Shown here: piece by piece, positions 4,990 to 26,306 of the stretch
Layout: every line of letters begins with the position of its first letter
How positions within the stretch are numbered: the stretch's first letter is position 1
Origin: Terriglobia bacterium
GTDB taxonomy: Bacteria > Acidobacteriota > UBA6911
NCBI GenBank assembly: GCA_020072565.1
Contig: JAIQGI010000010.1
Span: 64,592-128,591, forward strand
Direction: 5' to 3'
DNA: 64,000 nt
Program-made: the position numbers and the translations under genes
Notes under the pieces: generated by a model
Database searches by the model: none
What the model was told of the DNA's origin: nothing
The model's input: the letters and a program-made list of their open reading frames with translations, nothing else

Positions 4990-5026
4990 CCACGAAATAC
5001 ACGAAACGGAATTTGTGTATTTCGTG
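4990..5026. repeat. post-stop palindromic hairpin motif, copy A (CCACGAAATACAC-12 nt loop-GTGTATTTCGTG), candidate terminator/REP-like element
   Basis: Perfect 12-bp stem (4991-5002 / 5015-5026), 20-44 nt after the alpha-galactosidase stop. Shares the GTGT-N-TTTCGTG(GC) arm with copies at about 28646-28661 and 39842-39861. Confidence 0.5.
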
Positions 5027-5741: not shown

Positions 5742-5765
5742 GTCCTCTCTCAGTGGTAAGCATAA

Positions 5766-10319: not shown

Positions 10320-10438
10320 TCTGCCCGCCTGTTTTGCTGCTCTCCGGGAAAAAAGACGACCAGGCCTTGCTGGTACACATGGGTATCCGCGTTTTTTATT
10401 TGAGCCTTTGATGTGGAGCGCGTGAAAGCCGGCTCAAA

Positions 10439-10465
10439 GACTCAAAGACCCTGGGACTCTGAATC
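10439..10465. repeat. 27-nt intergenic motif copy 1 (GACTCAAAGACCCTGGGACTCTGAATC), preceded by tandem CTCAAAGA x2
   Basis: 22/27 identity, including a 20-mer with one mismatch, to 26245-26271. Lies between the SDR gene end and the start of the six-hairpin glycosidase gene. Confidence 0.5.
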
Positions 10466-10484
10466 CACACCGCCTCATGGGCAT

Positions 10485-11303
10485 CTACAGTCTTCGAATG
10501 TTCATGCCTCCGCTGACCTCGATCACGGCGCCGGTCGAAAAATCGAACGCGCCGCCGGCAAGTGCGGCAACTGCTTTCGCCACATCTTCCGGAGATCCCC
10601 AGCGCTTCTGGGGAATCAGCCCCTCACTGATCAGCCGGTCATATTTCTCTCTGACAGGTGCTGTCATTGCGGTCAAGATAATTCCGGGACGAATCTCAAA
10701 AACGAGGATGTCATGGGCCGAAAGCCGATCGGCAAAAAGCTGCGCCGACATGCTCAGGCCTGCCTTTGATATGCAGTATTCCGCCCGGCTGAGAGATGAA
10801 ACCGCAGCAGAAACCGACGTGATGAAAATGATGCATGGAGGCCGTCTTGCAGGTGCAGCACGCGCGCCGATCATCAATCTGGCGATCCGTTGAGTGAAAA
10901 AGAAAGTTCCTCGCAGATTGGTTGCGAGCACCCGGTCGAAACTCTCAGGGGTCAGATCAAGGATATCGCATCGTGTCAGAGGCGCTACGCCTGCATTGTT
11001 CACCAGCAGATCGATCCTGCCCGTATGGTCCACGAGGGAACCGACCAGTTCATCATGGGCACCCAGATCCGCAATATCACCATGCAGACGCAAAAACCCT
11101 GCGCCACTTCGCTCCAGTTCTGTTTCCAGGCTCCGCAGCGTATCCGCATCGTCTTGATCCTGCCAGGCGACGTCGATTGCAGCGATGTCATAACCACTCC
11201 GCGCCAACTCGATGCCGATCGCTCTTCCGATGCCCCGCGCGCCGCCGGTAACGACGGCTACCGCTCTTGCTGCAATGCCCTTATCATGATTGGTTTCAGT
11301 CAT
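10485..11303 (-). CDS. SDR-family short-chain dehydrogenase/reductase
   Basis: Classic VAVVTGGARGIGRAIG Rossmann motif, NNAG motif and Y-x3-K catalytic region (YCISK). 3-nt gap to the upstream gene. Confidence 0.9.
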   Translation of the reverse strand: MTETNHDKGIAARAVAVVTGGARGIGRAIGIELARSGYDIAAIDVAWQDQDDADTLRSLETELERSGAGFLRLHGDIADLGAHDELVGSLVDHTGRIDLLVNNAGVAPLTRCDILDLTPESFDRVLATNLRGTFFFTQRIARLMIGARAAPARRPPCIIFITSVSAAVSSLSRAEYCISKAGLSMSAQLFADRLSAHDILVFEIRPGIILTAMTAPVREKYDRLISEGLIPQKRWGSPEDVAKAVAALAGGAFDFSTGAVIEVSGGMNIRRL

Positions 11304-11306
11304 AGG

Positions 11307-13331
11307 CTACGACTCGGTTTCTTCAAATAGTTTTCCGTCCAGATAGTCCTTCCAGACATTTTCGAACCAATCGTTGACCTTCGGAATCGGCCGGACAGGA
11401 ACCCAACTTTTGTGAATCCGATAATCGGAATCGATCTCGAGTTCCAGGATGTGACGGCTCACGAACGCTTCGCTTTCGACCATTGAAAATCGCCAACTGT
11501 CGCCGATGTCCCCGCACGATAGCTCGCCGTCCCGGCCCAGTACCAGATACGAGCCGCGGCTCTTACCTCCCCGATCCAGATACTCGCCGATTGCTTCGAG
11601 ATACACAGCGTGCGTCAATGCGAGTTCAACCGTCCTGAATGCAAGCGGCACTTCCCTTCGATCATCAATTTGGGAGTTCGATTTGATTTCTTTAAAGGCA
11701 AGCCAGGCGTTCTCAATCGCACCTCGGATTTCATCGGGATTTCGCATCTGAGCGCCGTGTCGACTCATCCGCTGCCTGATCTCGTGGCCATATTCGGTGC
11801 ACGTGCGTTGACCCGCCTGCCTTGGAACGGACAACCATCGATTGATCCGCTCAAGCATGCCGGCAATCTGCGACTGTGCGTCCGAAACGAATTGCGGAAC
11901 ATCGGCCGGTGCAGATCGATATTTCCGCGCGATGTACATCGCTGCGCGCAGAGCACCGACCTGACCCGCATTCAACGCGGCGCCGCCGGGACGATAGACA
12001 CCGTGGGTACCATTGACTTCGCCGACGGGGAAAAGGTGGCTGATATTCGATTCCCACCAGTGATTGGCGCGCAGTCCTCCATTGTTGTGCTGAGCGCACA
12101 CGCCGATTTCCAGATACTCCCTGGCCAAATCGATGCCGTGGTCCCGATATAGATCTATTGCCCTCGGGTTCAAACGGGCAAGCCGTTCGATGGGTGTCGC
12201 TTGCAGGGCATGGGATCTTTTGAGATATTCCTTCGCCTCCGAAGAAACATCGGATAAGTCGAACTCGGCCAATGTTCCTCCGGGCGAGGGATTATGCCTG
12301 AAATCCAGGAAGGCCTTCCGCCCGCGCAGGATGGTTTCCTGATATACGGCAAGGTCGATGAGCGAGGAACCAAAGCCGGCGATCCTTCTCGGATCAAAGG
12401 GCCACTGATACCCTTTGCGGAATATCGCGCTCGCCATCGTTCCCATATCAGGGAAATGCTCAACCAGAAAATCGCATTCTCCTTTGCCGTCCATATCCGT
12501 GGACACATAGCGCGGTATCACCTGCTGGTATGAGCCGGACACATTCCATCGATGCTTGAGGGATGCCAAACCGAATTGAGACTCGGTAAGATTCTGGGCA
12601 ATCGCACCGATCTGGAGGGCAATCCCGATCGATCCGATCTGGTCCTCGGGGTATACCGACATTTCATACAGACCGCCGGGCCCTCCGGTGCCCAGAATGA
12701 CGTTCACCGCATTGAACAGGACCAGGCCGTAGCCGGGGCTCTCGAGTCCGTCGAGATCAAGAGCGACGGCCCCGATAACGCTCTTGCGCTTCTGGCCCTG
12801 TGCCACCAAAAGGGCGATTACCTGGTGCCGATCGAAAATCGGGATGCCATGATCCCTGACGCGCTTCGCCAACGCTTCGAACATATGACGGGAGGTGAGC
12901 GGACCGGCCGAGGTCGCACGTCCCCGGGGATCATGGTCGGTTCTGTATCCGGGATAGCCCCCGTAGCGGTCGTGAGGAAAAGGAACGCCTAACTGCACCA
13001 ATTCAAAGAACGCCTGAGCGGAATGTTGCGCTTCGCATAACGCGATATCGCCATGCATACAGCCGCCGGCGAAAAGGTCGCCGGCCATCTCCAGCGGAGA
13101 ATCCGGAGCTGAGCCAGACAGGGAGAGTTTGTAATAGGTCTGTTTGTCTGAACCCGAATTGTTTGATGTGCCGCCGCCCCATTTCTCCGTGACGATCGCC
13201 AGGGCATTCTGGCTCCGCTCCCACAGGCTGAGGGAAGCCTTGAGCGCGGCAGCACCGCTGCCGACCACCAGCGTGTTAACGGAAAATACCGGGAATTGAA
13301 TCCCTTGTATCAATACCGTACTCGCCCGCAT
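11307..13331 (-). CDS. FAD-dependent oxidoreductase, FAD_binding_2 (fumarate reductase/succinate dehydrogenase flavoprotein-like)
   Basis: N-terminal dinucleotide-binding motif VVGSGAAALKASL, downstream GGTS..SGS, and GVYRPGGAALNAGQVGALRAA typical of this flavoprotein superfamily. 674 aa. Confidence 0.65.
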   Translation of the reverse strand: MRASTVLIQGIQFPVFSVNTLVVGSGAAALKASLSLWERSQNALAIVTEKWGGGTSNNSGSDKQTYYKLSLSGSAPDSPLEMAGDLFAGGCMHGDIALCEAQHSAQAFFELVQLGVPFPHDRYGGYPGYRTDHDPRGRATSAGPLTSRHMFEALAKRVRDHGIPIFDRHQVIALLVAQGQKRKSVIGAVALDLDGLESPGYGLVLFNAVNVILGTGGPGGLYEMSVYPEDQIGSIGIALQIGAIAQNLTESQFGLASLKHRWNVSGSYQQVIPRYVSTDMDGKGECDFLVEHFPDMGTMASAIFRKGYQWPFDPRRIAGFGSSLIDLAVYQETILRGRKAFLDFRHNPSPGGTLAEFDLSDVSSEAKEYLKRSHALQATPIERLARLNPRAIDLYRDHGIDLAREYLEIGVCAQHNNGGLRANHWWESNISHLFPVGEVNGTHGVYRPGGAALNAGQVGALRAAMYIARKYRSAPADVPQFVSDAQSQIAGMLERINRWLSVPRQAGQRTCTEYGHEIRQRMSRHGAQMRNPDEIRGAIENAWLAFKEIKSNSQIDDRREVPLAFRTVELALTHAVYLEAIGEYLDRGGKSRGSYLVLGRDGELSCGDIGDSWRFSMVESEAFVSRHILELEIDSDYRIHKSWVPVRPIPKVNDWFENVWKDYLDGKLFEETES

Positions 13332-13341
13332 CTGCCATTCC

Positions 13342-14673
13342 CTATTTCTTGATGTTTGCGTACGCCCCTTTATAGATCGTTCGATCGCGAATCACGCATC
13401 CGGCAACCTGATTGTTCCTCATCAAGTCGGTGCAGCAGGAGCATGTAATACAGCATTTGGCAGGATCGAGTTTCCCCAGATTCATCAGGTCGACCGCAGC
13501 GTCGGGATATGCAAATGAACTTCTTCCGAGACCGATGAACGATGCACCCCCTTGGGCGATAACCGCCGCACCGACATTGGGCCAAAACCGGCGCAGCCAC
13601 GAGTATCCGGTGCCGACCACAGGCAATGAGGGGTGAGCATCCTGGAAGACCGCCGCCAATTGGATCAAGGAACAGACGCTGCTGAGCGGATGTATATCAG
13701 GACATTTCGCACCTCTGGCTGGGCGCTCAAAAGGCCTCCCGATATGTGGAGAGAGGGCAGGAACGGAAGCCGTGATATTGAACAGGACACAGCCGGCATC
13801 AATCAACAATTGCTGTAATCGCAAGGGCTCCGCCAAATCCGGTTTCGCTTCTGCGCCCTGGTCCACTCCGAACCCGTAAGGATAAGGGATCCCGTCCGTC
13901 GCATTTAAACGCACGGCAAGATCAAGCCGCGGAACCGCTTCACGAATTCGCCTCACGATGTCCAGCAGCAAGCGAGTCCGGCCTTCAAACCCGCCTCCAT
14001 ACAAACTGTCCGTCCGGGTGAATGCTGAAAGCAACTCGTGCAGCAGATAGCCGTGGCACGCCTTGATATCCACCGCATTGAAACCGGCCTGATGAGCAAG
14101 AATCGCCGCAGCGATGAATTGGTCTCCGATTTCGACCAGTTCTGCGTCGCGGAAGAGCTCAACCTCGCCCCGCGATTTGTCCAAAAAAGGATTGTAGCAA
14201 GTCACCTTGGGTTTCGATCTGTTTTCCCGCCTGCTGAAACGACCAGAATGGGTAAGCTGCAGGACTAGATATGGTTCGTGGGAAGCGCCGAAACGTTTGC
14301 GAGCGGTATTTCTGGCCATTTCCACAAGCCGCAGATACTCAGTGCGTGTTTTCCCGGTCAGTGTCAATTGCCTGGGATTGGATCGTCCAGGATCGGAAAC
14401 ACTGCACGCCTCAAACCATATTAGGCCGCTTCCTCCCTCAGAATATCTGCGGTACCGGCGCCATGTCAGCTCCCCTGGAGCTCCGGCCGGCGTGCCGTCG
14501 AATCCTTCCATCGGCTGGACAGCAATACGGTTGGCAACCTTTTGATCACCGATATGGAATGCCGCAAACAGGGGTGCAATCGATTCCTGAAACGGAAGGG
14601 ATACGCCCAATTCCTGCGCCTTTTTCAGCAGTTCGACAGAATTATGATAGCGGAACGGTTCGTGCCTGCGCAT
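13342..14673 (-). CDS. NADH:flavin oxidoreductase, Old Yellow Enzyme/2,4-dienoyl-CoA-reductase-like TIM barrel
   Basis: OYE-type motifs (IAVQPMEG, FNAVDIKACHGYLLHELLSAF), plus a Cys-rich C-terminal tail (CCITCSCC). Confidence 0.7.
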   Translation of the reverse strand: MRRHEPFRYHNSVELLKKAQELGVSLPFQESIAPLFAAFHIGDQKVANRIAVQPMEGFDGTPAGAPGELTWRRYRRYSEGGSGLIWFEACSVSDPGRSNPRQLTLTGKTRTEYLRLVEMARNTARKRFGASHEPYLVLQLTHSGRFSRRENRSKPKVTCYNPFLDKSRGEVELFRDAELVEIGDQFIAAAILAHQAGFNAVDIKACHGYLLHELLSAFTRTDSLYGGGFEGRTRLLLDIVRRIREAVPRLDLAVRLNATDGIPYPYGFGVDQGAEAKPDLAEPLRLQQLLIDAGCVLFNITASVPALSPHIGRPFERPARGAKCPDIHPLSSVCSLIQLAAVFQDAHPSLPVVGTGYSWLRRFWPNVGAAVIAQGGASFIGLGRSSFAYPDAAVDLMNLGKLDPAKCCITCSCCTDLMRNNQVAGCVIRDRTIYKGAYANIKK

Positions 14674-14691
14674 CGCTTCGCCTGGAATAAG

Positions 14692-15693
14692 TTATCCGAC
14701 TGAAGAAACAATCCTTCTCAAAGCTAGAATGTCACCTGCCATTCGCTGTTCGCACACATCAGGCCATCGGTCCCGCTCGACCATACAGCCTCCTGACATC
14801 GACTTCTCGGCGGTCAATTGCGACAATCTGATCAGCCGCGATAGTTCTGCGGCTGTCAAGTCAGGAAACTTGCTTAAGAAACTCGCATCAAAAATCGGCA
14901 ATAGAAAACTGCCGCCATGTCCTTCAACCGACAGATTCACGTCGGCTGACAGTGATCTCAGCAACTGCAGGATTGCCTGGAAATCAACTACGCCCAGGCC
15001 GGCCGGAACGGGAAATGAAAGCAGCCCTGCAGGGATCAACGAAATACCGCCATCCTTGATATGGGTGCAAACGACCCATGGAAGCAACCGGCGGGTCGCA
15101 CAAACAGGGTCTTCCAGCATGGTGAGGCAATTCATTGTATCCAGGCAGATACCCAACCACTCGCCCGGGAATGCCTCACACCTCTCAAACAATCGCACCA
15201 GCTCGAACGAGGTGAACTCGAAATGTGTTTCTATGGCGAGCACCACGTTATGATCAAGCAGCATCTGCTTCTGTGCGAGCAGCGCACCCGTCATCTCCTG
15301 CACCAGAGTTTCCGTCATCGGGCAATCGGGTTGCCACCTCATCAAGCCGCCGGAACAGGAGCGAATGACGCGGGTTCCCATCGTGGCCGCCTGTTCAGCA
15401 ATTTTGCGATTGGATTCGAGCAGCTCTTTCTTGTCCCAGTTGCTCATGTCCCGTGGGACATGTTGAGCGCCGCCCCATTCCAGGTACATGCCGTTCTCTC
15501 TGGCAAAGGAGGCGAGTTCCCGAAGATAAGTCCTGTCGGCCATTGCCTGAAAGCAGGGCTCCAAGCCGGAAAACTGTACACCCTCGGCTCCGTGGTCCAG
15601 TGCCCACTGCATTGTCTGCAGCGGATCCAGTCGCAGCGGATATAACCCGTAATTGTCAATGCCTATGCGGAACCGACTCACAATTCCTCTCAT
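14692..15693 (-). CDS. sugar phosphate isomerase/epimerase (xylose-isomerase-like TIM barrel)
   Basis: Xylose-isomerase-like TIM-barrel family resemblance over the full 333 aa; operon position between OYE-like reductase and symporter. Confidence 0.55.
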   Translation of the reverse strand: MRGIVSRFRIGIDNYGLYPLRLDPLQTMQWALDHGAEGVQFSGLEPCFQAMADRTYLRELASFARENGMYLEWGGAQHVPRDMSNWDKKELLESNRKIAEQAATMGTRVIRSCSGGLMRWQPDCPMTETLVQEMTGALLAQKQMLLDHNVVLAIETHFEFTSFELVRLFERCEAFPGEWLGICLDTMNCLTMLEDPVCATRRLLPWVVCTHIKDGGISLIPAGLLSFPVPAGLGVVDFQAILQLLRSLSADVNLSVEGHGGSFLLPIFDASFLSKFPDLTAAELSRLIRLSQLTAEKSMSGGCMVERDRWPDVCEQRMAGDILALRRIVSSVG

Positions 15694-15750
15694 CTTCCCT
15701 GCCGACCGGCAGTCGTTCGGGAACCGACTTCCCTTCCGCCATGGTACTCA

Positions 15751-17856
15751 TTATCTGATTGAAACCATTACCCACAACAAAACAATCACCAAGCCCACAA
15801 GCAGCCAGCACCCCCCGAATCCGACGTAATCGGACCACGCCGGTCTCAGAACCTCCCATTGTGACCCCGGGATCAGCTTTTCCTTTTCGAATCTAGCCGG
15901 ATGCGCATACGATTCCGCTACTACTTTCTCATCTTCCTCATGAGTCGGCTGTACCGGAGTGTGCAATCTGGCAAAGAACCGGTCGAGCACCACTCTTGGC
16001 GCAGGTCGGGTCAGGAATGAGATCAGGAACAGCAGCACAAAGGGGAAAAACGCATCAAAGAAAAATCGGACAGCCACCAGCTGTGATTTCCTGAAGCCCG
16101 AGAAATCGATGCCGAACCAGGAAAGAATCCAGATTTCCGCGTGAAAACGGCCCAACCCGACCTTAGCCGATTGCGGATTTTCCGGGTCTATCCTCGCCAC
16201 CCGCTCGAACAGGATACCCACGGGAGGAATCACATGATCTTTTTGTATTAATTGTCCTGTCGCCGCGGCGCGCCCTTCGCTCACATCCTGCGCCAGCGCC
16301 TGCACGGTTACCACCATCGATTGTTGTTTCGTTTCCTGCAGAAACGAACGGCTATATTTAATCGCGTCCACCTGCTGGAAGAGATTTGGTATGATCGCAT
16401 ATATCACGATACAGAGGGCCACTTGTATGATGACCGCCCACCTGGTCACGCGCCGCCAGAGAAATCCGAGCCAAATGGAAGCGCCGAAAATTGCCGGAAT
16501 TGAAATGATATATTGGAACAGCTCGAGCAGATTGTTCACGAGCAGCGCCACACCGATTCCACCCAGCAAGGAGGCGGCAATGACGATGCGGCCGACCCTC
16601 AGATAATGCCTGTCGGATTTGCCGGCATAGCGTGGTTTGTACAGGTTATTTGTGAAGAGCGCCGCGTATGAGACCGCGCCGGCGGCTAAGGCAGACATAT
16701 TGGCCGCAAGGACCCCCACCAGCATCAAGCCGATCGCCCCAGGTGCCAGCAGGTCTTTCGTCATATATCCCCAGATCATGTCCGGGTCATTCAGTTTCCC
16801 TGCGTACATCCCGACAGCCAGCAATCCGGCAAGTGCCCAGAACAGCATCAGGATGCGCTTGGCGAACATCCCGCCGATCATGCCGATGCGCGCAGTGTAC
16901 TCGTTCCTGGCCGATCCGGCGGTCTGCATCCCCGAAACCACGGCCACAATCGACACCAGGTTGGACAAAACCATCGCCAGCACGGTATACCAGGCATATT
17001 CGCTCAAGGTCGCCGAGCCGAACAGGTTGAACATGTAGTCTGGCACCTTCGCATGGAGCTGGGCGAAGCCGCCTATTCTTATTAATCCGACCGGGATCAA
17101 CATCACGGAGAATGTGATGATCAACATTCCCTGCACGGCATCAGTCAACGCAGCGGCACGGAAGCCTCCCAGCATGGTGTAGACGGCAACGACAATCGCA
17201 AACATGAAGTAGAAAAACACCGGACTGATATAGGATACGAACGATTTGAGTTCGCCTTTTTTGTTCTTCTCCCGCAATTCATTATATCGCGCTTGCCGCT
17301 CGTCGGATAATCCGTTCGCTTTCTGCGCTTCGAGCACCTGGAACTCTTCAAATTGTCGGATGCTGGCCTGCTCGGCCGGTGTGCATTCCTCGAACGGTTT
17401 CGGCGCCATCGCAACCATGGTCTTGCCCGCGACCATATAGCCGACACCGCTACCGACCAGCGAAAGCGCCAACATGAACACGGCATAACCTGCGCCGAGA
17501 AAACGACTGTTATAGCGTTCCGTGAAATAATCGCCAATCGTCGTCAACCGGACGCGACGGAAGAACAGCGTCGTGAACCAATAAAAGGGGGTGAGAAAGA
17601 GAACAAGAAACTGGATCCACATTCCGCCGATGCCCTGCCGGTAGATCTCGCGCGAGACCGCTACCGCCTGATCCGCATTGGTGGAGCATCCGAGATTGAG
17701 GAAAAACTGATAGAATTTGCCGAGATTGCGGCCGGCGAGATAAAATTCCCTTTCACTCCTGGTTTTTTTTGATACCCGCTTTCCCAGCCACACCATCACC
17801 ACGACGTATAGCGCGATGATGCTCAGATCGACGACATGAATGCCCCAAAGGTACAT
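15751..17856 (-). CDS. sodium:solute symporter family (SSS) transporter
   Basis: 701-aa polytopic membrane protein; N-terminal SSS signature (GKRVSKKTRSEREFYLAGRNLG...) and multiple hydrophobic helices throughout. Confidence 0.85.
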   Translation of the reverse strand: MYLWGIHVVDLSIIALYVVVMVWLGKRVSKKTRSEREFYLAGRNLGKFYQFFLNLGCSTNADQAVAVSREIYRQGIGGMWIQFLVLFLTPFYWFTTLFFRRVRLTTIGDYFTERYNSRFLGAGYAVFMLALSLVGSGVGYMVAGKTMVAMAPKPFEECTPAEQASIRQFEEFQVLEAQKANGLSDERQARYNELREKNKKGELKSFVSYISPVFFYFMFAIVVAVYTMLGGFRAAALTDAVQGMLIITFSVMLIPVGLIRIGGFAQLHAKVPDYMFNLFGSATLSEYAWYTVLAMVLSNLVSIVAVVSGMQTAGSARNEYTARIGMIGGMFAKRILMLFWALAGLLAVGMYAGKLNDPDMIWGYMTKDLLAPGAIGLMLVGVLAANMSALAAGAVSYAALFTNNLYKPRYAGKSDRHYLRVGRIVIAASLLGGIGVALLVNNLLELFQYIISIPAIFGASIWLGFLWRRVTRWAVIIQVALCIVIYAIIPNLFQQVDAIKYSRSFLQETKQQSMVVTVQALAQDVSEGRAAATGQLIQKDHVIPPVGILFERVARIDPENPQSAKVGLGRFHAEIWILSWFGIDFSGFRKSQLVAVRFFFDAFFPFVLLFLISFLTRPAPRVVLDRFFARLHTPVQPTHEEDEKVVAESYAHPARFEKEKLIPGSQWEVLRPAWSDYVGFGGCWLLVGLVIVLLWVMVSIR

Positions 17857-18049
17857 TTGCTGTGATCCTTATGCGTGCAGGCATTTCTATCTCGGGAGCG
17901 CTCGCGGCGCAAGGGAAATTCGGCCAGCGCTCGATTACGGGAAACTCATCCGGATCGATCAGGGAGTTGCCGGTGAGAGAAGAACATCGAACCAGCGTGC
18001 CCGCGCACCAGAATGCGCTATGCGAATCGTGGGTGACTCTGGACTCTCA

Positions 18050-19768
18050 TCACGCCAGAAACCAGAAATCCAGCGCGCCGCGATCGAGGTGGATGCGCGC
18101 CGGCTCAGGGCTGATGTCCTGGAGCATCTGGTCGCGGCGATATAACGGGCCCGGCCCTTCCGCGCCATAGTAGATCGGCACCTGGCATTGATCGGAGTCG
18201 GAGTAACCGGTCGCATCGCTATTTTCGAGCGGTTGCATCCTCACCACGGTGTCGCCCTTCCAGGTCACCCGATAGCGGTACTGCTTGAAACCGGGATTGC
18301 CGACAGTTGATTCCTCTTCGCGAATTTCCAGAGGGTAAGTGAGGGTGATCAGATCGGCAGCCGGCCGCCGGCCGAAATCGAGATAGTTGCCCCGAACATC
18401 GACCCCGAGACCTCCCCTGTCGGATTCAGCATGGATGTCGGCGGCGCCGGCAAAGTCGGGGACTCGGACGTGCACGCGGCAGTCTTGCTTGAGTCGGATG
18501 GTCAACTCGCCCCGGTAGGGCTGCAAACAGCGGATCTCGGCCTGGGGCAGCAGCTTGTCCAGGTGCATGTTCACGTAAAGGCAGTCGTCGAAGAAACGCG
18601 CCGCATTCTTCCAGACGATGAACAGGGCGTGGGTGCCCGAACCTCCGCAGCAGTTCTGGAAGGCCCGGACCTTATTCTTCAACTCGGGGCCGCCCCAATG
18701 GGCTTTGAGCGATTCCTGCGCAGCAAGGAAGTGGTTGGGTGAAGTCCAGCCCGCATAGCCGCCAAGCATGCGCCGGTCAATGTCGCGCCAGGTGAACTGA
18801 GCGGTATCGGGCTGCGACGGATCGGAGACCAGCCAGGAGCCATCGGCAAGCTGGCTCTCGATGAGATGGTTGCGGGCGGTGCGTTCGACGTCGCCCCAGT
18901 ACTCAGGATGGCCGTGGTTGGCAAGCGTGACGCCCAATCCGATGTAATCCATCAGGGCGCAGGTCTCGCAGGAGATCACGTCTCCGCGGCGTCCGACCAC
19001 CTCAGGCAGGAAACCAAACCGCGTCCCCAGGGACCGGACGTGGCGATACAGCTCATTGATACGATTCAGGAGCACCGCATCCCGCATGTAGATGGCGTAA
19101 TCAGCGGTGCCTAGCAGGGTGCGCAGGCTGCTGTGCATGTGTGCGCCCTGGCGGAGAGTGTTGCCAGGGAGGAACTCGGGTTTTTGAATGAATGTATCGC
19201 TCACGACCATGCCCGCCAGCTCCAGCGCTGCCGCCGGGGGGGCATACCGACCGGCGGCCATCAGACTCTTGAGGATGAAACCGTTGAGGTCGTCACGCTT
19301 GCCGGACCTTCTCTGCCCCAGCAGCGTCTCGACCATGGTGTGGATGCGTCGCTCCATCGCCGGCTCAGGCTGATCTGCGAATGCGGTCGCCAGGGCATAG
19401 AGCGTCAGCGCCTGGTCGCCGCTATCGGCCACGTGCTTCGAATAGTGGGTCTTGGGTCTGAAGAGCAGACCCGTGGCTGGATCGAGATAGGACTCCAGCT
19501 TCTCGCGCCACCTGGACTCGATACCCACCTGTTGTCCTGTCATACATCGGGCCATGATGGCGGCCTGGAATTGCCGGCTCATCACGTCGCCGAAGTCGGG
19601 CCAGTCGTGGGCGGCTTCGGCCGGTGTAGTCCAGAAGATGTTGAAATAAGGCTGCGCGTCTTTGTCAACCATCTCACAGAGATAGTTAAAACTGTGCCGA
19701 GCATACGTTTCCATTGCTACGGTTTGCGCAGCGGTGGCGGCTCTTCCTCCCTGGTTGCATCCTGCCAT
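18050..19768 (-). CDS. DUF1680/GH127-like glycoside hydrolase (putative beta-L-arabinofuranosidase family)
   Basis: 572 aa; contains an E-x-C (SCETCALM) and an adjacent CC pair (QNCCGGSG), reminiscent of the Glu/Cys/Cys-Cys zinc site of GH127 enzymes. AGGAGG SD 7 nt upstream of ATG. Family call is by memory and needs verification. Confidence 0.45.
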   Translation of the reverse strand: MAGCNQGGRAATAAQTVAMETYARHSFNYLCEMVDKDAQPYFNIFWTTPAEAAHDWPDFGDVMSRQFQAAIMARCMTGQQVGIESRWREKLESYLDPATGLLFRPKTHYSKHVADSGDQALTLYALATAFADQPEPAMERRIHTMVETLLGQRRSGKRDDLNGFILKSLMAAGRYAPPAAALELAGMVVSDTFIQKPEFLPGNTLRQGAHMHSSLRTLLGTADYAIYMRDAVLLNRINELYRHVRSLGTRFGFLPEVVGRRGDVISCETCALMDYIGLGVTLANHGHPEYWGDVERTARNHLIESQLADGSWLVSDPSQPDTAQFTWRDIDRRMLGGYAGWTSPNHFLAAQESLKAHWGGPELKNKVRAFQNCCGGSGTHALFIVWKNAARFFDDCLYVNMHLDKLLPQAEIRCLQPYRGELTIRLKQDCRVHVRVPDFAGAADIHAESDRGGLGVDVRGNYLDFGRRPAADLITLTYPLEIREEESTVGNPGFKQYRYRVTWKGDTVVRMQPLENSDATGYSDSDQCQVPIYYGAEGPGPLYRRDQMLQDISPEPARIHLDRGALDFWFLA

Positions 19769-19830: not shown

Positions 19831-21102
19831 ATGATATTCTGCCCGCACCAAGGAAAGCAAACTGCTATCAATATGCCAGGAGAAGACGCTGAGCCCGTAA
19901 CCGTTCTGATGGTCGCCATTGGCGGCTACGGATTCCATTATCTGAAGACTCTGCTCGATGAGCTGCCGCCCTCGCGTTGCCGACTAGCGGGTGTTGTGGA
20001 CCCGATGGCAGAGCGCTCGCTGCTGTGGCCGGTTGTGAGCCACTTTGGCATTCCGGCCTGTTCGTCCATCGACGAGTTCTATGAGGAAGGCCACCACGCC
20101 GATCTGGCCGTGATCTCCTCGCCGATTCACTGGCATGTGCCGCAGAGCCTCGTTGCGCTGTCTCGCGGGTCTTCGGTCCTCTGCGACAAGCCGCTGGGAG
20201 CGACGATCCAGGAGGCCCGGGAACTCGTCGAGGGCAGGGACCACTCCGGCCGCTGGGTCATGATCGGCTACCAGTGGTCGTACTCCAGAGCGATACTCGC
20301 ACTCAAGCGCGACATCCTGGCCGGCCTCTTCGGGTGCCCCAGGCGGCTCTCGACGCTCTGTTGCTGGCCCCGGGACTCGGGTTACTACGGCCGCAACGAC
20401 TGGGCCGGCCGTCTCCTGGATCAGCCTACGGGACGCTGGGTGCTCGATAGCCCCGCGAACAACGCGATGGCGCATTTCCTTCACAATCTCCTCTTCGTCC
20501 TTGGGTCTGAAATGCACCTGAGCGCGCAGCCGCGATCGGTGCAGGCCGAGATGTACCGGGCCAATTCGATCGAGAGTGCCGACACGGCTGCGTGCCGGGT
20601 GCTGACCGAGAATGGCACCGAGCTGCTGTTTTACGCATCCCACGCGACTGAGCGGGCCATTGACCCGCGTTTCCACTTTGAGTTCGAGGAGGCGGTTATC
20701 ACCTGCGGCGAGGAGGGGGGTGAGATCGTGGCTCTGGACCGCAAGGGAAACCTCAAGTCCTACGGCGCGCCGGATGACACATCGCAGTTCCGGAAACTGG
20801 TCGCCGCCATTGACTACGTGAGGGGTGAGGGCACGATCGCCTGCGGCCCCGAGGCCGCCATGGCGCAGACGCTCTGCGTCAACGGCATGCATGACTCGGT
20901 GTTTGAAATTCCATCGTTCCCGGTTATGCAGGTGCGCCGGGAGGGGGCGCCCGGGCGCATGATCGTCGCCGGCCTCGACGACACCCTCCTGTGTTGCTAT
21001 CGCCAGGGGAAGCTTCCCCGCGAAACCGGTGTCGCGTGGGCGGTCGCAGGCCGGTCGGTCAGTCTCTCCGATTACCGCTGTTTCCCGGGTGGAGCATCAT
21101 GA
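19831..21102 (+). CDS. Gfo/Idh/MocA-like NAD(P)-dependent oxidoreductase
   Basis: N-terminal Rossmann-like segment (VTVLMVAIGGYGFHYLKTLLDEL...VVDP) and central/C-terminal alpha/beta domain typical of the family. Alternative start at in-frame ATG 19873. Stop overlaps the next gene start (ATGA). Confidence 0.5.
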   Translation: MIFCPHQGKQTAINMPGEDAEPVTVLMVAIGGYGFHYLKTLLDELPPSRCRLAGVVDPMAERSLLWPVVSHFGIPACSSIDEFYEEGHHADLAVISSPIHWHVPQSLVALSRGSSVLCDKPLGATIQEARELVEGRDHSGRWVMIGYQWSYSRAILALKRDILAGLFGCPRRLSTLCCWPRDSGYYGRNDWAGRLLDQPTGRWVLDSPANNAMAHFLHNLLFVLGSEMHLSAQPRSVQAEMYRANSIESADTAACRVLTENGTELLFYASHATERAIDPRFHFEFEEAVITCGEEGGEIVALDRKGNLKSYGAPDDTSQFRKLVAAIDYVRGEGTIACGPEAAMAQTLCVNGMHDSVFEIPSFPVMQVRREGAPGRMIVAGLDDTLLCCYRQGKLPRETGVAWAVAGRSVSLSDYRCFPGGAS

Positions 21103-22178
21103 CCTCGCGTGAGCTGGTGCGACGCACTCTCGAGTTCGCCTCGCCGCCGGCGGTGCCGCGGCAGATCTGGATTTTGCCGTGGGCGGAACAGCATTACCCC
21201 GCCGCGGTTGCGAAACTGCGTGCTGAGTTTCCGGATGACATCGTGACCGCGCCGGCGCTCTATCGCGCGCCGCTGCCGATCGTCGGCAATCGCTACGAGA
21301 GGGGCATTTATATCGATGAGTGGGGCTGCCGATTTACGAACATCCACGGGGGCGTCATCGGAATCGTCAAGGAGCCGGTTGTCCGCGGCTGGGATGATCT
21401 TGATCATTTCCGTACGCCGGACGCCACCTTGGCTGTCGACCGCGGGGGTGTCAACGGCTTCTGCCGGAACACCGACCGCTTCGTGCTCGCCGGCACCCTG
21501 GTGCGTCCGTTCGAACGCCTCACCTTCATCCGTACTATGGAGCAGGCTTTGATGGACCTGGCAGAGCAGCCGCCCGAGTTGTTCCACCTGTTGGGACGCA
21601 TCCACAACCACTATCTGAGAGAGGTCGAGGCGTGGGCTCGGACCGAAGTCGACGCCATCGTGTTGATGGACGACTGGGGCACACAGCAACGCATGATGAT
21701 CGCGCCGGACCTCTGGCGCCGGATTTTCAAGCCCTTTTACCGCGAATACAACGAGATCGCCCGCCGTCACGGCAAGTACGTGTTCATGCACTCGGACGGC
21801 TATATCACCGACATCATTCCCGACCTCATCGAGGTCGGTGTGAATGCGCTCAACAGCCAGATCAAGTGCATGGGGGCGGTGGACCTGGGTCGGCGATTCC
21901 GCGGCCGGATCACCTTCTGGGGGGAGATGGACCGTCAGGAACTGCTCGCCTTCGGATCGACGGACGAAGTGCGACGCGCCGTCAGTGAAGCGCGTGCGAA
22001 CTTGTATGCGAACGGAGGTGTGATCGCCCAGTGCGAGTTCGGCCCCGGGGCAAAGCCCGAGAATGTATTCGCGGTCTTCCGCGCCTGGAGAGACCAGGAC
22101 GAGGCTCAGAGAATATTGATCGCAGATAAAGGCCCATCGCGGCCCGGTCCTTGCCACGATCCGCGTTCATCTGCGTAA
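21099..22178 (+). CDS. uroporphyrinogen decarboxylase (URO-D)/MtaA-CmuA-like family protein
   Basis: URO-D-family TIM-barrel resemblance from the N-terminus (MTSRELVRRTLEF...P.QIWILPWA...). Start moved from 20991 to ATG 21099 (GGGTGGAG SD), giving the ATGA overlap with the upstream gene. Confidence 0.6.
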   Translation: MTSRELVRRTLEFASPPAVPRQIWILPWAEQHYPAAVAKLRAEFPDDIVTAPALYRAPLPIVGNRYERGIYIDEWGCRFTNIHGGVIGIVKEPVVRGWDDLDHFRTPDATLAVDRGGVNGFCRNTDRFVLAGTLVRPFERLTFIRTMEQALMDLAEQPPELFHLLGRIHNHYLREVEAWARTEVDAIVLMDDWGTQQRMMIAPDLWRRIFKPFYREYNEIARRHGKYVFMHSDGYITDIIPDLIEVGVNALNSQIKCMGAVDLGRRFRGRITFWGEMDRQELLAFGSTDEVRRAVSEARANLYANGGVIAQCEFGPGAKPENVFAVFRAWRDQDEAQRILIADKGPSRPGPCHDPRSSA

Positions 22179-22219
22179 GGCTGCGGTTCTTTTCGAGGAC
22201 AGGAAAGGAGGAGTAGGCG

Positions 22220-24592
22220 ATGATGCAGGCGCACAAGGGAACAGTCTTCGCTCTGGTCCTGTTATCGGCCTTGGCAGTGCCGCCGTTGCTGCTTCACCAC
22301 GCGTCATCCGCAGTTCCGCAGGGCACGACGGTTCGAGCCGCGCCGGTCATCCCTCGCGATCGCTACCTCCAATACGCCCGCGCGGCCGCCGATTGGACGT
22401 GGGATCACCAGGGCGAAATCCTCAAGCAGTGGCGCGCGACTTTTGATCCGGAAAGCCCCTTCGGCTATCGGGCCCCCGGCGGCCTGATCGATATGGCTCT
22501 CATCTACTCCTATCTCTTCGAGAAGGAGGGCAATGCTGTCTACGCCGAGCGCGCGAAAAACGTGCTGCTCACCTATGGCGACTACCGCTCACAGTTCCCG
22601 GAGTCGGCTGCCAGGAAGCGACCCGACTACTCGAACGGCGTGCCGGCGCTGCCTGACTTTTTTGTCGTGATGCGGTTCGTGCGGGCCTACGATACGCTTC
22701 ACCGCCTGGGAAAGCTCTCAACCGCCGAAGCGGTCGCGGTGGAATCGCTGGTCGCGCACAGCATGGACTATCTGCTGCAGACATCCGAGTGGGGCACGAT
22801 GAACCGGACGATGTTGCGCGCCGAATCGCTGGCGTGGGCCGTACGGGCCATGAAGAACCATCCGCGCGCGGCCGCCTATGAGACCCAGCGCCGGGCGCTC
22901 GGCGACGATAACTGGGGCAACTGGGAGATCGAAGACGCGACCATCTATCACGGCGTCTGGGTCTACGCGCTGCTCGGCTACTCCGACGCGCTCGGTCGCA
23001 TGGACGAGCTCTTCAAGACACCCGAGTTTTATTACTACACCCACTACTTCCTGAATCTGATGTCGCCGGCGGCTGTCGTGCCCGATTTCGGCGACGCCCA
23101 GTGGACGTCGAACTGGCAGCACTTCCTGGTCTTCTTCGAGGCCGCGGCTGCACGGCTGAACGAGCCGACGATGAAATGGGCCGCGCAAGCGATCGCGGCG
23201 AAGTTCGTCGATTTCAAAAATCCTACGAGCGCGGGCCTCGGCTGCTTCCTGCTCGACGCGTATCGCTGGGGCCGCGACGATGTGGCGGCCACCCCGCCGG
23301 CAACATTGAGTGGGGAGGTCATGGAGGACGTGCAGGGCAAGAAAGTTGTGTTCCGCAACGGCTGGAGGCCCGATGCGACCTACCTCCTCCTCAATTACCG
23401 TGACGAGGGGGACGGCGGCCTGAACTTCCGCGATTATCTGCGTGATTCGATCCCGGTCGAGGAAGAGAAGATGACCCACGGCCATGCCGATGAAAACAGC
23501 GTCGTCCTCCTCATGTCGGGCGGGTCGGTGCTGCTTCACGACGGCGGGTACCGCGACTACATGCCGAGCGGGCCATTCGGTGCCTATCGGCAGGACTACT
23601 TCCACAACCGGCTGATAGTGCGCCCGGAAAAGATCTTCATGGGTCAGAAGGAGGGCGAACAGCGTTACAGCACGAAGGAGCCGGTGCCGGCGCAACCGCT
23701 CTTCGAGTTCCTGCGTGACGCGGGCTCGTATCGTCCGATTCGGACCAGAAAGGTCGACTTCCTGGCATTGCCCGAGTTCGACTACAGCCGGACCCGGCTC
23801 ATCGACGATGGCTGGAAATATGATTCAGATCGGGTGGTAGTGTATGTGAAGGACCCGGAAATGTTCGTCGTCTTCGACATCTTCAAGTCAGCGACCGCGG
23901 AGTACTTCACGCTGGCAAACCTCTGGCACACGCGGCAGATCCTGGCACGCGGCGAGCACTGGTATGACACCGTGTACGACGTGATCGGCACCGAGAAGCT
24001 CCCGACCGATCGGCGGTTGCTCATCTGCTTCCCACAGACCCATTACCGGCTCGAAGGCATCGAACCGGTGAAGCGGCACTACCAGGATGAACAGACGATT
24101 TACCAGATGACCGCCAGTCATTTCGAGCCGACCCACACCGAGGGCTTCGTAACCGTCCTTGTCCCGCACGGGAAAGACCAATCGCCTTCGACCCTGGTGG
24201 ACCGCCTGCGCTTCATCGAGACCGTCCCCGCGCGCACGGGCATGGCTGTGAGGATCGAAGCCGGAGGCCGCGTGATCACCGTCGGCGTCAAGAACGACCT
24301 GCGCATGGACATCGCGCGGGACTGGCGCCGGCCGCGGTATGTCTATGAAAAAGGGAAGATCGCGTACGGATCGCTAGAAACGGACGGTGACCTGGTGTTC
24401 GCTTCGGAAAACAAGGGAGAACTCTCGTACACCATTGTCAATATGACGAGAGCGCAGCGCGGTGAGCAGGTGCTCTTTCAGAACGGCCAGTCGTTCCACG
24501 GCTTGCCTTTCGACGCGTCGACCGATACCGGCGGCGTCGACAAGGTGCGTTACTGGCGCGACACCGTGAGGATTGACACCCGTGGCAAGTGA
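22220..24592 (+). CDS. secreted heparinase II/III-like polysaccharide lyase family protein
   Basis: AAGGAGGAG SD 7 nt upstream. Signal peptide (MMQAHKGTVFALVLLSALAVPPLLL). C-terminal HGHADENSVVLLMSGGSVLLHDGGY matches the heparinase II/III-like domain signature; N-terminal alpha/alpha-toroid region. Confidence 0.55.
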   Translation: MMQAHKGTVFALVLLSALAVPPLLLHHASSAVPQGTTVRAAPVIPRDRYLQYARAAADWTWDHQGEILKQWRATFDPESPFGYRAPGGLIDMALIYSYLFEKEGNAVYAERAKNVLLTYGDYRSQFPESAARKRPDYSNGVPALPDFFVVMRFVRAYDTLHRLGKLSTAEAVAVESLVAHSMDYLLQTSEWGTMNRTMLRAESLAWAVRAMKNHPRAAAYETQRRALGDDNWGNWEIEDATIYHGVWVYALLGYSDALGRMDELFKTPEFYYYTHYFLNLMSPAAVVPDFGDAQWTSNWQHFLVFFEAAAARLNEPTMKWAAQAIAAKFVDFKNPTSAGLGCFLLDAYRWGRDDVAATPPATLSGEVMEDVQGKKVVFRNGWRPDATYLLLNYRDEGDGGLNFRDYLRDSIPVEEEKMTHGHADENSVVLLMSGGSVLLHDGGYRDYMPSGPFGAYRQDYFHNRLIVRPEKIFMGQKEGEQRYSTKEPVPAQPLFEFLRDAGSYRPIRTRKVDFLALPEFDYSRTRLIDDGWKYDSDRVVVYVKDPEMFVVFDIFKSATAEYFTLANLWHTRQILARGEHWYDTVYDVIGTEKLPTDRRLLICFPQTHYRLEGIEPVKRHYQDEQTIYQMTASHFEPTHTEGFVTVLVPHGKDQSPSTLVDRLRFIETVPARTGMAVRIEAGGRVITVGVKNDLRMDIARDWRRPRYVYEKGKIAYGSLETDGDLVFASENKGELSYTIVNMTRAQRGEQVLFQNGQSFHGLPFDASTDTGGVDKVRYWRDTVRIDTRGK

Positions 24593-26165
24593 GACCCGAA
24601 TCCGGACCGGCCGGCGCGAGTTCGACGAATTGTATCCGCTCGTGCGCTCGTTCCTCGAGCGCGACATCCTGGATCTGTCAATCGACGGGCAGCGCATCCG
24701 GGGGTACAGGTCGGCGGACACGCGCTCGATCTGGATCCGCGACCATGGCGACATGATGCGGACGTTCCGATACTTCGAGCGCGACGTGACCAGCGCCATC
24801 CGGCACTTCTCGGAGACCCAGGCGGAGAGCGGCCGCATCTTCGATTACTTCACTACCTTCCCGGAGAAGCTGCCGAGCGAACGGGAGAACTGGACCAAGT
24901 ACGTGCGCGTGCCGGTCGAAGCCGATGTCGAGTACCGCTTCGTCAAGGCCGCGTGGCTCGCGTGGCAGGCAACGGGCGACGATGCCTGGATTCGACAGCT
25001 GATGCCCCGGATGGAGAAGGCGCTGGCCTACATCACATCGCACCCGTGGTACTGGGACCGCATCCGCGGCCTGGTGAAGCGGGCCTACACGATCGACACC
25101 TGGGACTTCGCTTACACGGCAGGCCGACATGACTGGCTCCAGTTTCAGATCACCGACGACACGTTCTGGGGCATCCTGCACGGCGACAACAGCGGCTACT
25201 ATCAAGCGTTTCTCATCATGGCGGCGTTATGGCGGCGGTTCGGCGAGCAGGCGCGGGCTGGCGAGTGGGAGGCGCGCGCTGCAACCTTGCGCGACAATCT
25301 GAACCGGATTTGTTGGAACGGCCGTTTCTACACCCACTTCGTAAAGATTACTGACGCCGTGATCCCCGGCGTGGACGAAGCGGAGCAGCTCAGCCTGAGC
25401 AATCCGATGGATATCAATCGCGGGGCGGCAACCCACGAGCAAGCGGTCTCGATCCTGCGCGAGTATCAGCGCAGGCGGGATGAACGCCGGGCGTTCGCCG
25501 AGTGGTTCTCAATCGACCCGCCGTTTCCCGACGGAGTGTTCGGCGATGAGCGCCTCGTGCGTGGCGCGTACTGCAACGGCGGCATCATGCCGCTCGTCGG
25601 AGGAGAGCTGGCGCGGGCTGCGCTCGGGCACGGGTTCGAGGCATACGGCGTGGACATCCTGCGCCGGTATTTCGACCTGGTGTCGAAAACGGGCTCAACC
25701 TACCTCTGGTATTTTCCGGACGGCAGGCCGAGCAGCATAGAGACCAGCACGAGTCCGGAAGCGTCTCCGACAGACGGCTGGGGATCGAGTGCGATGTGCT
25801 GGGCACTGACAGAAGGCCTGGCAGGGGTCGTGGATCGAGGCCGGGGATTTGACTGTGTGGAAATCTCGCCGCGCTGGCCGGCGGCCGGCATCGAGGAGGC
25901 GGAAGTTTCAGTCGGCTACGAATGCTCGGAGCGCGGCATCGCCTACCAGGTGCGCGTGCTGCCGGACAAGATCGTGCTCACGGTCGATGCAGATGGATCG
26001 GAAGCCGGATTGCACGTGCTGTTGCCAGCCGGAGCGGAACCACGGGCAGTCCGATGCAACGGGCATGACGTGCCGTTCCACGCCGTGACGGTTGAGCAGA
26101 GCCGTTACGCGGATTTTGATGCCGCCGTCCGAGGAACTGCCCAATTTGAGATTCCGTTTCGTTGA
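24573..26165 (+). CDS. hypothetical protein, possible (alpha/alpha)6-type glycosidase-like
   Basis: 530-aa ORF beginning at TTG 24573 (or GTG 24582), overlapping the upstream stop by 20 or 11 nt. No confident family. Aromatic-rich segments (WYWD, WDFAYTAG, FWGILHGDNSGYY) suggest a carbohydrate-active fold. Confidence 0.35.
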   Translation: MTPVASETRIRTGRREFDELYPLVRSFLERDILDLSIDGQRIRGYRSADTRSIWIRDHGDMMRTFRYFERDVTSAIRHFSETQAESGRIFDYFTTFPEKLPSERENWTKYVRVPVEADVEYRFVKAAWLAWQATGDDAWIRQLMPRMEKALAYITSHPWYWDRIRGLVKRAYTIDTWDFAYTAGRHDWLQFQITDDTFWGILHGDNSGYYQAFLIMAALWRRFGEQARAGEWEARAATLRDNLNRICWNGRFYTHFVKITDAVIPGVDEAEQLSLSNPMDINRGAATHEQAVSILREYQRRRDERRAFAEWFSIDPPFPDGVFGDERLVRGAYCNGGIMPLVGGELARAALGHGFEAYGVDILRRYFDLVSKTGSTYLWYFPDGRPSSIETSTSPEASPTDGWGSSAMCWALTEGLAGVVDRGRGFDCVEISPRWPAAGIEEAEVSVGYECSERGIAYQVRVLPDKIVLTVDADGSEAGLHVLLPAGAEPRAVRCNGHDVPFHAVTVEQSRYADFDAAVRGTAQFEIPFR

Positions 26166-26244
26166 ATATTGCCCGCGAGTCGTGCGCTCCTTGGAGCCTG
26201 CGAGTCCTGGGGTCCTTGGGATGGCACCTAATCCTGGCCTCAAA

Positions 26245-26271
26245 AACTCAAAGACCCTGAGACTCCAAGTC
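26245..26271. repeat. 27-nt intergenic motif copy 2 (AACTCAAAGACCCTGAGACTCCAAGTC)
   Basis: Lies about 35 nt upstream of the 768-aa hypothetical gene start. Contains the internal 5-bp inverted repeat GAGAC-CCAA-GTCTC. Confidence 0.5.
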
Positions 26272-26306
26272 TCGGAGGCTCATGACAGAAAGCCCAGGGA
26301 TTGACT

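Follow-up and report, generated by a model that had tools for sequence, protein, structure and literature searches.

A conserved two-flavoprotein module may convert sugar acids to 2-keto-3-deoxy-gluconate in Acidobacteriota and other phyla

Contig JAIQGI010000010.1 of a Terriglobia bacterium carries, in a 64,000-nt stretch that was analyzed as a whole (the window, within which all positions are numbered), five minus-strand genes separated by spacers of 57, 18, 10, and 3 nt. In the order of transcription, they encode a sodium/solute symporter (SSF), a xylose-isomerase-like TIM-barrel protein (TIM), an Old Yellow Enzyme (OYE)-like flavin mononucleotide (FMN) protein, a flavin adenine dinucleotide (FAD) protein of the FAD_binding_2 type, and a short-chain dehydrogenase/reductase (SDR). 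The initial annotation had described these genes as a closely spaced cluster, and both the open reading frames (ORFs) and the spacing proved correct; all five family assignments were matched in a Pfam profile search, and comparative synteny showed that the gene order is kept across loci of many phyla, as befits a conserved unit. The end that had been assigned to the operon, at 10485, stood only for a five-gene core. After a 165-nt spacer, the unit runs on into a co-directional gene for a six-hairpin glycosidase candidate and from there into a GH38 α-mannosidase gene, the start codon of which abuts the stop codon of the six-hairpin gene in the TGAATG manner. From the observed gene content, conservation, cofactor motifs, folds, natural fusion of the two flavoproteins, and linkage to genes for 2-keto-3-deoxy-gluconate (KDG) kinase and aldolase, we arrived at the reading that we consider best, with a probability of about one half: a pair of flavoproteins wired through Fe-S would convert a sugar acid to KDG, with both the identity of that acid and the sequence of reactions deduced.

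All seven genes between positions 5766 and 17856 have a GC content at third codon positions (GC3) of 0.58 to 0.68, and every flanking gene, including the GH127-like gene next to the SSF gene (0.75) and the divergent GFO/URO-D operon beyond it, has one of 0.75 to 0.81. The edges of this low-GC3 island are the start of the SSF gene and the stop of the GH38 gene. Each island gene is present in a single copy in the 7.46-Mb genome, and the FAD protein has an orthologue in 4 of the 8 other genomes of the same genus, in none of 28 from other genera of the family, and in 1 of 24 from the remainder of the class. The low GC3, the single copies, and the patchy occurrence among relatives together indicate that the seven-gene island was acquired horizontally. 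Consensus promoter and terminator scans of the region gave counts at background level, and co-transcription was therefore deduced from the spacing and the conserved gene order. The spacer between the SDR and glycosidase genes contains a weak terminator-like hairpin on the minus strand (10359-10374; a 5-bp stem, then CGTCTTTTTT), which could be a partial terminator or attenuator dividing the redox genes from the glycosidase genes, such sites being found at chance level.

The OYE-like protein scored 80 bits against PF00724 (cut-off, 27) and has a C-terminal C408-x2-C411-x2-C414-x11-C426 motif that is at least 90% conserved in 44 orthologues. We take this CxxCxxCx11C arrangement to be the one found at the 4Fe-4S sites of both FadH and trimethylamine dehydrogenase. 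The chain stops at residue 443, right past the Cys motif, with no FAD or NAD(P)H domain. Judged by its sequence, with a barrel and a predicted 4Fe-4S site, the protein belongs to the Fe-S subclass of OYEs. Its structural model (pLDDT 95) gave its longest alignments, covering 416 to 429 columns, with 2-naphthoyl-CoA reductase (NCR; TMq 0.72) and FadH (0.69), and the NCBIfam model of the bilirubin reductase N-domain aligns to residues 36 to 428. Every NCBIfam equivalog score was far under its cut-off. An apparent TIM::OYE fusion in locus L017 was rejected, its junction translating into an Arg/Pro/Ala-rich segment typical of a frameshift or lost stop codon in a metagenome-assembled genome (MAG).

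The model of the FAD protein (pLDDT 91) had FrdA/SdhA proteins as its top 25 Foldseek matches (TMq, 0.66 to 0.69; ~17% identity), followed by APS/PAPS reductase (AprA class) and NadB; the soluble Fcc3/KstD type was not among the top fold matches. Within the superfamily, the proteins with which the modeled fold groups most closely either dock an Fe-S partner or have the same architecture as those that do. The four-domain FrdA fold is kept, together with the His/Arg substrate pair of the FAD domain, H415 and R447 being invariant and corresponding in a profile alignment to NadB H351 and R386. The position of NadB H244 (SdhA H242) is occupied by an invariant glycine, G254, and the His that binds FAD covalently in Mycobacterium smegmatis Sdh1 aligns to a near-invariant S56. 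Scores were low against the NCBIfam sdhA/frdA models (TIGR01812, 53 bits with a cut-off of 567; NF006686, 35 with a cut-off of 854) and the nadB model TIGR00551 (83 bits; cut-off, 453), and no SdhB/FrdB-type Fe-S or anchor gene was found within the island, on either side of it, or among the operon genes of 82 related loci. The initial annotation had named membership in a respiratory complex as one of two findings that would overturn its proposal. With serine in place of the flavin-binding His, low sdhA, frdA, and nadB scores, and no SdhB/C/D-type neighbor, the flavoprotein instead lies outside respiratory complex II. The FMN_bind domain (PF04205) had no match in any module protein, even at E values of up to 10. 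Many invariant residues in the capping domain of the FAD protein are polar or Trp, which a sugar ligand would lead one to expect.

Two observations concern the reading frames around the FAD gene. In some Aminicenantes loci (L042, at 4893-5918; L027; L035; L037; and L057), an extra gene of ~250 to 340 aa, with a weak match to SRPBCC/Polyketide_cyc2, lies between the OYE and FAD genes and, in some of them, appears to be in frame with the FAD ORF. Apart from this SRPBCC-like gene, several very long "FAD" and "SDR" ORFs were discarded as artifacts of upstream extension in ORF calling.

The two flavoproteins also occur as one. A natural 1,084-aa OYE::FAD fusion (P0125), found on two contigs, keeps the Cys motif, and its OYE and FAD parts are 51% and 55% identical to the window proteins; its gene is embedded in the order SSF, a 527-aa protein, an aminotransferase, a 770-aa protein, TIM, the fusion, and SDR. 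In nearly all other loci, the OYE and FAD genes are adjacent. No fusion of FAD to SDR turned up in the 82 loci or in the 150 best representatives. Because the OYE-like protein has no nicotinamide domain and the FAD protein has no FrdB, and because their genes are adjacent and naturally fused, a 4Fe-4S-mediated electron link between the two flavins is the most economical reading of these sequences; we infer both the direction of electron flow and a physical complex of the two proteins. In the cytoplasmic NADH:fumarate and acrylate reductases, an OYE-like domain feeds an FAD_binding_2 enoate site via an FMN_bind relay (10.1101/2022.01.20.477176), and in the equol gene cluster, OYE, SDR, and FRD-like enzymes act on one substrate (PMC4965515). 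Two loci, L002 (7069-9714; Zhuqueibacterota) and L060 (6582-9227; Fibrobacterota), encode an 881-aa protein in which the OYE/4Fe-4S part is fused to a GltD-like Fer4_20 plus Pyr_redox_2 module, so that entry of NAD(P)H into the chain is also possible; this fusion suggests that the OYE flavin is a substrate site rather than an NADH site. The resulting three-flavin, multicluster layout resembles that of dihydropyrimidine dehydrogenase or NfnB.

Using tblastn of the window proteins against locus DNA and clustering of all ORFs, we compared the 82 loci with one another. Full-length orthologues of the FAD protein, at 46 to 75% identity, were present in at least 590 species genomes, thousands of metagenomic homologues had identities of 57 to 75%, and at an E value of ≤1e-30 the family accounted for 513 clusters (50% identity) among 1.84 billion representatives; by sequence, it is a tight and discrete family. 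The carriers belong to Acidobacteriota, Aminicenantes, Zhuqueibacterota, KSB1, Phycisphaerae, Bacteroidota, Bacillota (including cultured Halanaerobium), Fibrobacterota, Thermotogota, and Lentisphaerota. A triad of OYE, FAD, and SDR genes is nearly universal, in that order or, in Bacillota, in the order OYE-SDR-FAD; OYE was found in ~40 of the 46 loci with complete flanks, the SDR gene is next to the FAD gene in 62 of the 82 loci, and a TIM orthologue occurs in 26, mostly directly upstream of OYE.

The genes that follow the triad point to KDG, a hub of uronate, pectin, alginate, and glycosaminoglycan catabolism. In 12 loci, from Acidobacteriota-like, Aminicenantes, Phycisphaerae, and Gemmatimonadota genomes, the gene immediately downstream of the SDR gene encodes a KHG/KDPG-aldolase-sugar-kinase fusion (NF041633; 947 bits against a cut-off of 700), a position that is filled in Bacillota by unfused Eda and PfkB genes belonging to the same families. 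The triad of Halanaerobium congolense is flanked on one side by a LacI regulator gene and on the other by genes for a TctC-Usp-TctB-TctA carboxylate transporter, followed by mannitol-dehydrogenase-family (UxuB/UxaB-like), UxaE, UxaC, and altronate/galactarate-dehydratase-family (UxaA-like) genes, and in H. kushneri, genes for a GH28 polygalacturonase and an esterase lie upstream of the FAD gene. Two complete Aminicenantes chromosomes each have one full-length aldolase-kinase fusion, inside the module locus, and KduI, UxaC, UxuA, and GD_AH_C (UxaA type) were not found on either. A search of 9 further module genomes, mostly MAGs, failed to find UxaC in 8, and KduI was not found in 4 of the 5 module genomes examined for it. 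Synteny in many phyla thus bears out the proposed tie to the catabolism of sugar acids (uronates and KDG), and in some bacteria the module seems to replace the textbook uronate pathway.

The remaining island proteins can be placed with less precision. The TIM protein (62 bits against PF01261; cut-off, 31) has four residues, E155, D185, H211, and E257, that are invariant in 23 orthologues and that, matched by their spacing, are presumably the Glu-Asp-His-Glu metal and catalytic tetrad of ketose-3-epimerases. There was no close solved structure among its PDB matches; the best match of its profile was Art22, for which a literature search returned unrelated papers only. It is probably an isomerase, epimerase, or β-eliminase acting on a keto-sugar acid. 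The SDR passes the model NF009386, nominally a "3-ketoacyl-ACP reductase" (330 bits; cut-off, 250), and falls below the kduD models TIGR01832 (134 versus 339 bits) and NF005390 (126 versus 369 bits); no cupin KduI (PF04962) is encoded within the island. The structures closest to the SDR are uncharacterized structural-genomics SDRs (4da9; 4e-69), and it is probably a keto-sugar-acid reductase. SSF orthologues with 56 to 67% identity adjoin the module in 9 loci of other phyla, plus locus L093. The 676-aa six-hairpin protein had no Pfam match and, among the NCBIfam models, weakly matched those of TreH1 (2.6e-12) and an oligosaccharide amylase; it has no signal peptide and is predicted to be cytoplasmic, and its orthologues lie downstream of the module in 6 loci. 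Orthologues of the GH38 enzyme, also cytoplasmic, are found beside the module in 10.

Upstream of the SSF gene, across a spacer of 193 nt, lies the 572-aa GH127-like gene, followed by a divergent plus-strand operon (19831..28613) for which orthologues were counted by blastp (Table 1). Since the orthologues of these plus-strand genes are found beside the module in other phyla, the two divergent operons form one functional neighborhood. As listed, the URO-D-like ORF (20991-22178, plus strand) overlaps the GFO gene by 112 nt; its start is probably an internal ATG at ~21099 that overlaps the GFO stop codon in the ATGA manner, which would make the two genes translationally coupled. The GH127-like gene is a different matter. 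It had no significant Pfam match (GH127, PF07944: E = 0.15, 11.5 bits against a cut-off of 24.9) and no PDB sequence match, and against the GH127 clusters of the ESM Atlas it had a language-model feature score of 0.96 and predicted-structure TM scores of 0.67 to 0.70, so the label holds for likeness of fold and features but not at the level of sequence. The suggestion that this gene supplies the substrate found no support: no orthologue was found in any of the 82 loci, it is absent from the closest syntenic Acidobacteriota loci (L005 and L006), and its GC3 is host-like.

Table 1. Coordinates of the island genes and their neighbors in the window
Feature	Position	Strand	Remarks
SSF transporter, 701 aa	15751..17856	-	First gene of island; PF00474 8e-15, TIGR00813 1e-29
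Xylose-isomerase-like TIM-barrel metalloenzyme, 333 aa	14692..15693	-	PF01261 AP_endonuc_2 9e-17
OYE-family FMN protein, 443 aa	13342..14673	-	PF00724 Oxidored_FMN 2.4e-22
FrdA/SdhA/NadB-like FAD flavoprotein, 674 aa	11307..13331	-	PF00890 FAD_binding_2 6e-19
Classical SDR, 272 aa	10485..11303	-	adh_short_C2 1.6e-41
Six-hairpin (GH15/trehalase-like) glycosidase candidate, 676 aa	8289..10319	-	Weak NCBIfam matches
GH38 α-mannosidase, 840 aa	5766..8288	-	Glyco_hydro_38N 1.8e-54 plus middle and C-terminal domains
GH127-fold protein, 572 aa	18050..19768	-	Adjoins island, outside conserved module
GFO/IDH/MocA dehydrogenase	19831-21102	+	Pfam; orthologues in 13 module loci
URO-D/MtaA-like	about 21099-22178	+	Pfam; orthologues in 13 module loci
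Secreted heparinase-II/III-like, 790 aa	22220-24592	+	Hepar_II_III_N match; signal-peptide-like N terminus; 6 loci
MGH1/GH63-like, 530 aa	24573-26165	+	Orthologues in 3 module loci
770-aa protein without assigned family	26301-28613	+	Orthologues in 5 module loci

Elsewhere, the most frequent neighbors of the module are the URO-D-like family and a 408-aa GFO family (13 loci each); further GFO-family genes, LacI and IclR regulators, and MFS or TctABC transporters also recur. A class V aminotransferase gene lies between the SSF and TIM or OYE genes in at least three loci of different lineages (L093, at 3386-4666; L030; and L056), and L002 has a class III aminotransferase gene, which hints that some variants may act on an amino or keto-amino sugar acid. 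The OYE and FAD genes of one complete Aminicenantes chromosome are separated by an opposite-strand ORF of 1,150 aa (L001, 6214-9666, minus strand); its product is 31% identical to a BNR/sortilin-like 917-aa protein encoded in the window (15-2768).

On the reading that we favor, the five genes would form the center of a catabolic island of seven genes that was acquired horizontally. The glycan or glycoside to be degraded, acidic and containing mannose, would first be cut by the secreted lyase-like enzyme and the glycosidases of the neighboring operon; the SSF transporter would import a fragment of it, and the cytoplasmic GH38 and six-hairpin enzymes would trim that fragment. TIM, OYE, FAD, and SDR would then turn the freed carboxylated sugar into KDG or a close analogue, to be consumed by KDG kinase and 2-keto-3-deoxy-6-phosphogluconate (KDPG) aldolase. 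A keto-sugar acid could arise by the isomerase activity of TIM or through the GFO dehydrogenase; the metal-dependent TIM enzyme would enolize it and either isomerize it or eliminate a β-substituent to give an enone, the C=C bond of which would be reduced by the FMN/4Fe-4S OYE protein and the keto group of which would be reduced by the SDR. The FrdA/NadB-like protein, gripping the carboxylate by its His/Arg pair and acting on the α and β carbons, would oxidize the 2-hydroxy-acid end to the 2-keto acid, KDG, and pass the electrons back to OYE via the cluster. The two flavoproteins would thereby make up one Fe-S-wired redox unit with no need for FrdB or a separate nicotinamide domain. The net reaction would equal the UxuB and UxuA steps but tolerate a substituted 4-oxygen (methyl or glycosyl), a tolerance that would fit the recurrent URO-D/corrinoid, lyase-like, and GH38 genes; a carboxylated sugar as the substrate is what the His/Arg pair, the presence of TctABC transporters, and an endpoint at KDG point to. 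We regard it as conceivable, at odds well short of even, that the module is a self-contained, internally redox-balanced, flavin-based system of deoxygenation that converts hexuronates and O-substituted or keto sugar acids to KDG and replaces UxaC, UxuA, and KduI in Aminicenantes, Phycisphaerae, and other anaerobic glycan degraders.

Several points weigh against this scheme. Literature searches returned no characterized homologue or pathway for the four families, and both the proposed substrate and the proposed order of reactions were therefore chosen for their chemical plausibility. The conversion of an aldonate to KDG needs only a simple dehydratase, so that a requirement for two flavoproteins is hard to explain unless the substrate carries a modification. 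Calls of absence in MAGs are weak evidence. The genome to which the window belongs has UxaC, UxuA, KduI (contig C124), and Eda outside the island, and the island itself has no KDG kinase or aldolase gene; the link to KDG is thus made, in this organism, by homology to other loci, and the island would be an additional route there. The FAD gene occurs without an OYE gene in six full loci, and TIM is missing from the Bacillota and most Bacteroidales loci. The GltD-like module of L002 and L060 allows NAD(P)H to be a source of electrons there besides the FAD protein. Finally, a Bacillus locus (L031, Bacillus sp. V3-13; 2460-12022) has a 52%-identical FAD orthologue and no OYE; the other genes of its operon are for an ABC transporter, CoA-transferase, SDR, enoyl-CoA hydratase, and acyl-CoA dehydrogenase. 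Such a setting of CoA esters, quite different from that of the sugar-acid loci, implies that the FAD family is not bound to one context.

On a rival reading, the OYE/Fe-S protein and the FrdA-like protein would form a soluble NAD(P)H:enoate reductase that used a sugar-derived α,β-unsaturated carboxylate, such as a 4,5-unsaturated uronate, as a fermentative electron sink, in analogy to the cytoplasmic NADH:fumarate, acrylate, and cinnamate reductases but with the 4Fe-4S cluster standing in for the FMN_bind relay; the SDR and TIM enzymes would process the reduced product. The hosts are mostly anaerobes, the His/Arg carboxylate pair is conserved, and lyase-like genes are nearby, all of which such an enzyme would lead one to expect. 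We nevertheless judge it unlikely. The FMN_bind domain is missing; the GltD-like NAD(P)H module attached to OYE in L002 and L060 would make an NADH-oxidizing OYE site redundant; and reduction of a 4,5-unsaturated uronate would give a 4-deoxyuronate, for which an onward route is not known. The tight linkage in operons to KDG kinase and aldolase and the absence of further KDG feeders from Aminicenantes moreover argue for a main carbon route and not a side sink.

A somewhat more doubtful proposal makes TIM and SDR analogues of KduI and KduD (or of a DEH reductase) that take 5-keto-4-deoxyuronate, derived from lyase products, to KDG, with the flavoproteins as accessories acting beforehand on a modified uronate (e.g., one with a 4-O-methyl or other substituent). 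Aldose-ketose isomerization would suit a xylose-isomerase-like TIM with an intact metal tetrad, and the placement of KDG kinase and aldolase right after the SDR is like that in alginate and pectin loci. The failure to find KduI in most of the module genomes tested and the recurrence of heparinase-II/III-like and URO-D/corrinoid genes beside the module are also consistent with this proposal. The SDR, however, reaches only 134 of the 339 bits of the kduD cut-off, and its universal partners are OYE and FAD, not TIM. TIM is, furthermore, missing in Bacillota loci that are still without KduI, such as that of H. congolense, whereas the genome of the window organism and one Bacteroidales genome hold both KduI and the module.

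Least probable of those that we weighed is a role for the triad on a non-carbohydrate carboxylate or enone aglycone (quinate, shikimate, or a plant phenolic), following the ene-reduction, keto-reduction, and dehydroxylation logic of equol and bile-acid metabolism while the sugar genes merely release or co-metabolize the glycone: the use of the same three superfamilies on one enone by the equol cluster, a marginal PDB match of the TIM profile to an AsbF-type dehydroshikimate dehydratase (E = 0.08), the CoA-ester context of the one Bacillus locus, and IclR regulators in 3 operons speak for it, but the neighbors are mainly KDG kinase and aldolase, GFO-family sugar dehydrogenases, uronate genes, and glycosidases, those for aromatic-ring enzymes or CoA ligases are not among the recurrent ones, and the polar and Trp residues of the FAD capping domain would be expected for a sugar. 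An oxidative mannose or semi-phosphorylative Entner-Doudoroff route, with the SDR as an aldohexose 1-dehydrogenase, was dropped because it leaves the flavoproteins without a role.

The module is present in hundreds of species of uncultured bacteria from sediment, peat, and digesters. If it is a route to KDG, as we propose, then metabolic reconstructions of Aminicenantes, Phycisphaerae, Acidobacteriota, and many anaerobic Bacillota and Bacteroidota miss the use of acidic sugars, and an Fe-S OYE paired with an FrdA-like protein, without FrdB or a nicotinamide domain, would be a new wiring of two flavoenzymes. Cultured carriers such as Halanaerobium congolense put the question within direct experimental reach.

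The superfamilies themselves are known; their combination, a wiring through Fe-S that dispenses with FrdB, and the apparent replacement of the canonical enzymes that feed KDG appear to be undescribed. Among the closest parallels in design are the NADH:fumarate, acrylate, and cinnamate reductases (Klebsiella FRD, Vibrio harveyi ARD, and Vibrio ruber Crd), which, like the module, combine an OYE-type FMN part with an FAD_binding_2 part that has a His/Arg carboxylate pair and are soluble, with no membrane anchor, the corresponding coupling in the module being presumed. They use a covalently flavinylated FMN_bind relay, whereas the module has a predicted 4Fe-4S site on OYE; the OYE and FAD parts of the module are separate proteins that are rarely fused, its FAD protein has the long FrdA/SdhA architecture and is not Fcc3-like, and its context is sugar-acid and KDG catabolism.

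With the Fe-S OYEs (FadH, NCR, clostridial 2-enoate reductases [2-ER], BaiCD/BaiH, and the short form of BilR), the window OYE shares an FMN TIM barrel followed by a CX2CX2-3CX11-12C site. FadH, NCR, and 2-ER, however, carry C-terminal FAD/NAD(P)H domains that the window OYE lacks, and the partner of the latter is FrdA-like rather than flavodoxin-like. In the equol cluster, compared here by description only, an OYE/Fe-S daidzein reductase (DZNR), an SDR dihydrodaidzein reductase, and a fumarate-reductase-like tetrahydrodaidzein reductase are likewise encoded together and act sequentially on one enone in anaerobes (PMC4965515), but the subfamilies are different, DZNR has its own NAD(P)H/FAD domains, and the substrate is an isoflavone. 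The window FAD protein shares with FrdA, SdhA, and NadB the four-domain fold (TMq, 0.66 to 0.69) and the His and Arg of the FAD domain; it differs from them in its ~17% identity, its lack of the covalent-FAD His, the Gly in place of H244/H242, its capping residues, its NCBIfam scores of 53 to 89 bits against cut-offs of 450 to 930, and the absence of FrdB/SdhB or anchor genes. No canonical feeder enzyme is part of the module, and we know of no flavoprotein in the established routes into KDG; with the UxaC/UxuB/UxuA, UxaB/UxaA, KduI/KduD, and DEH-reductase routes, the module has in common the end of the pathway, KdgK and Eda, which appears to be identical.

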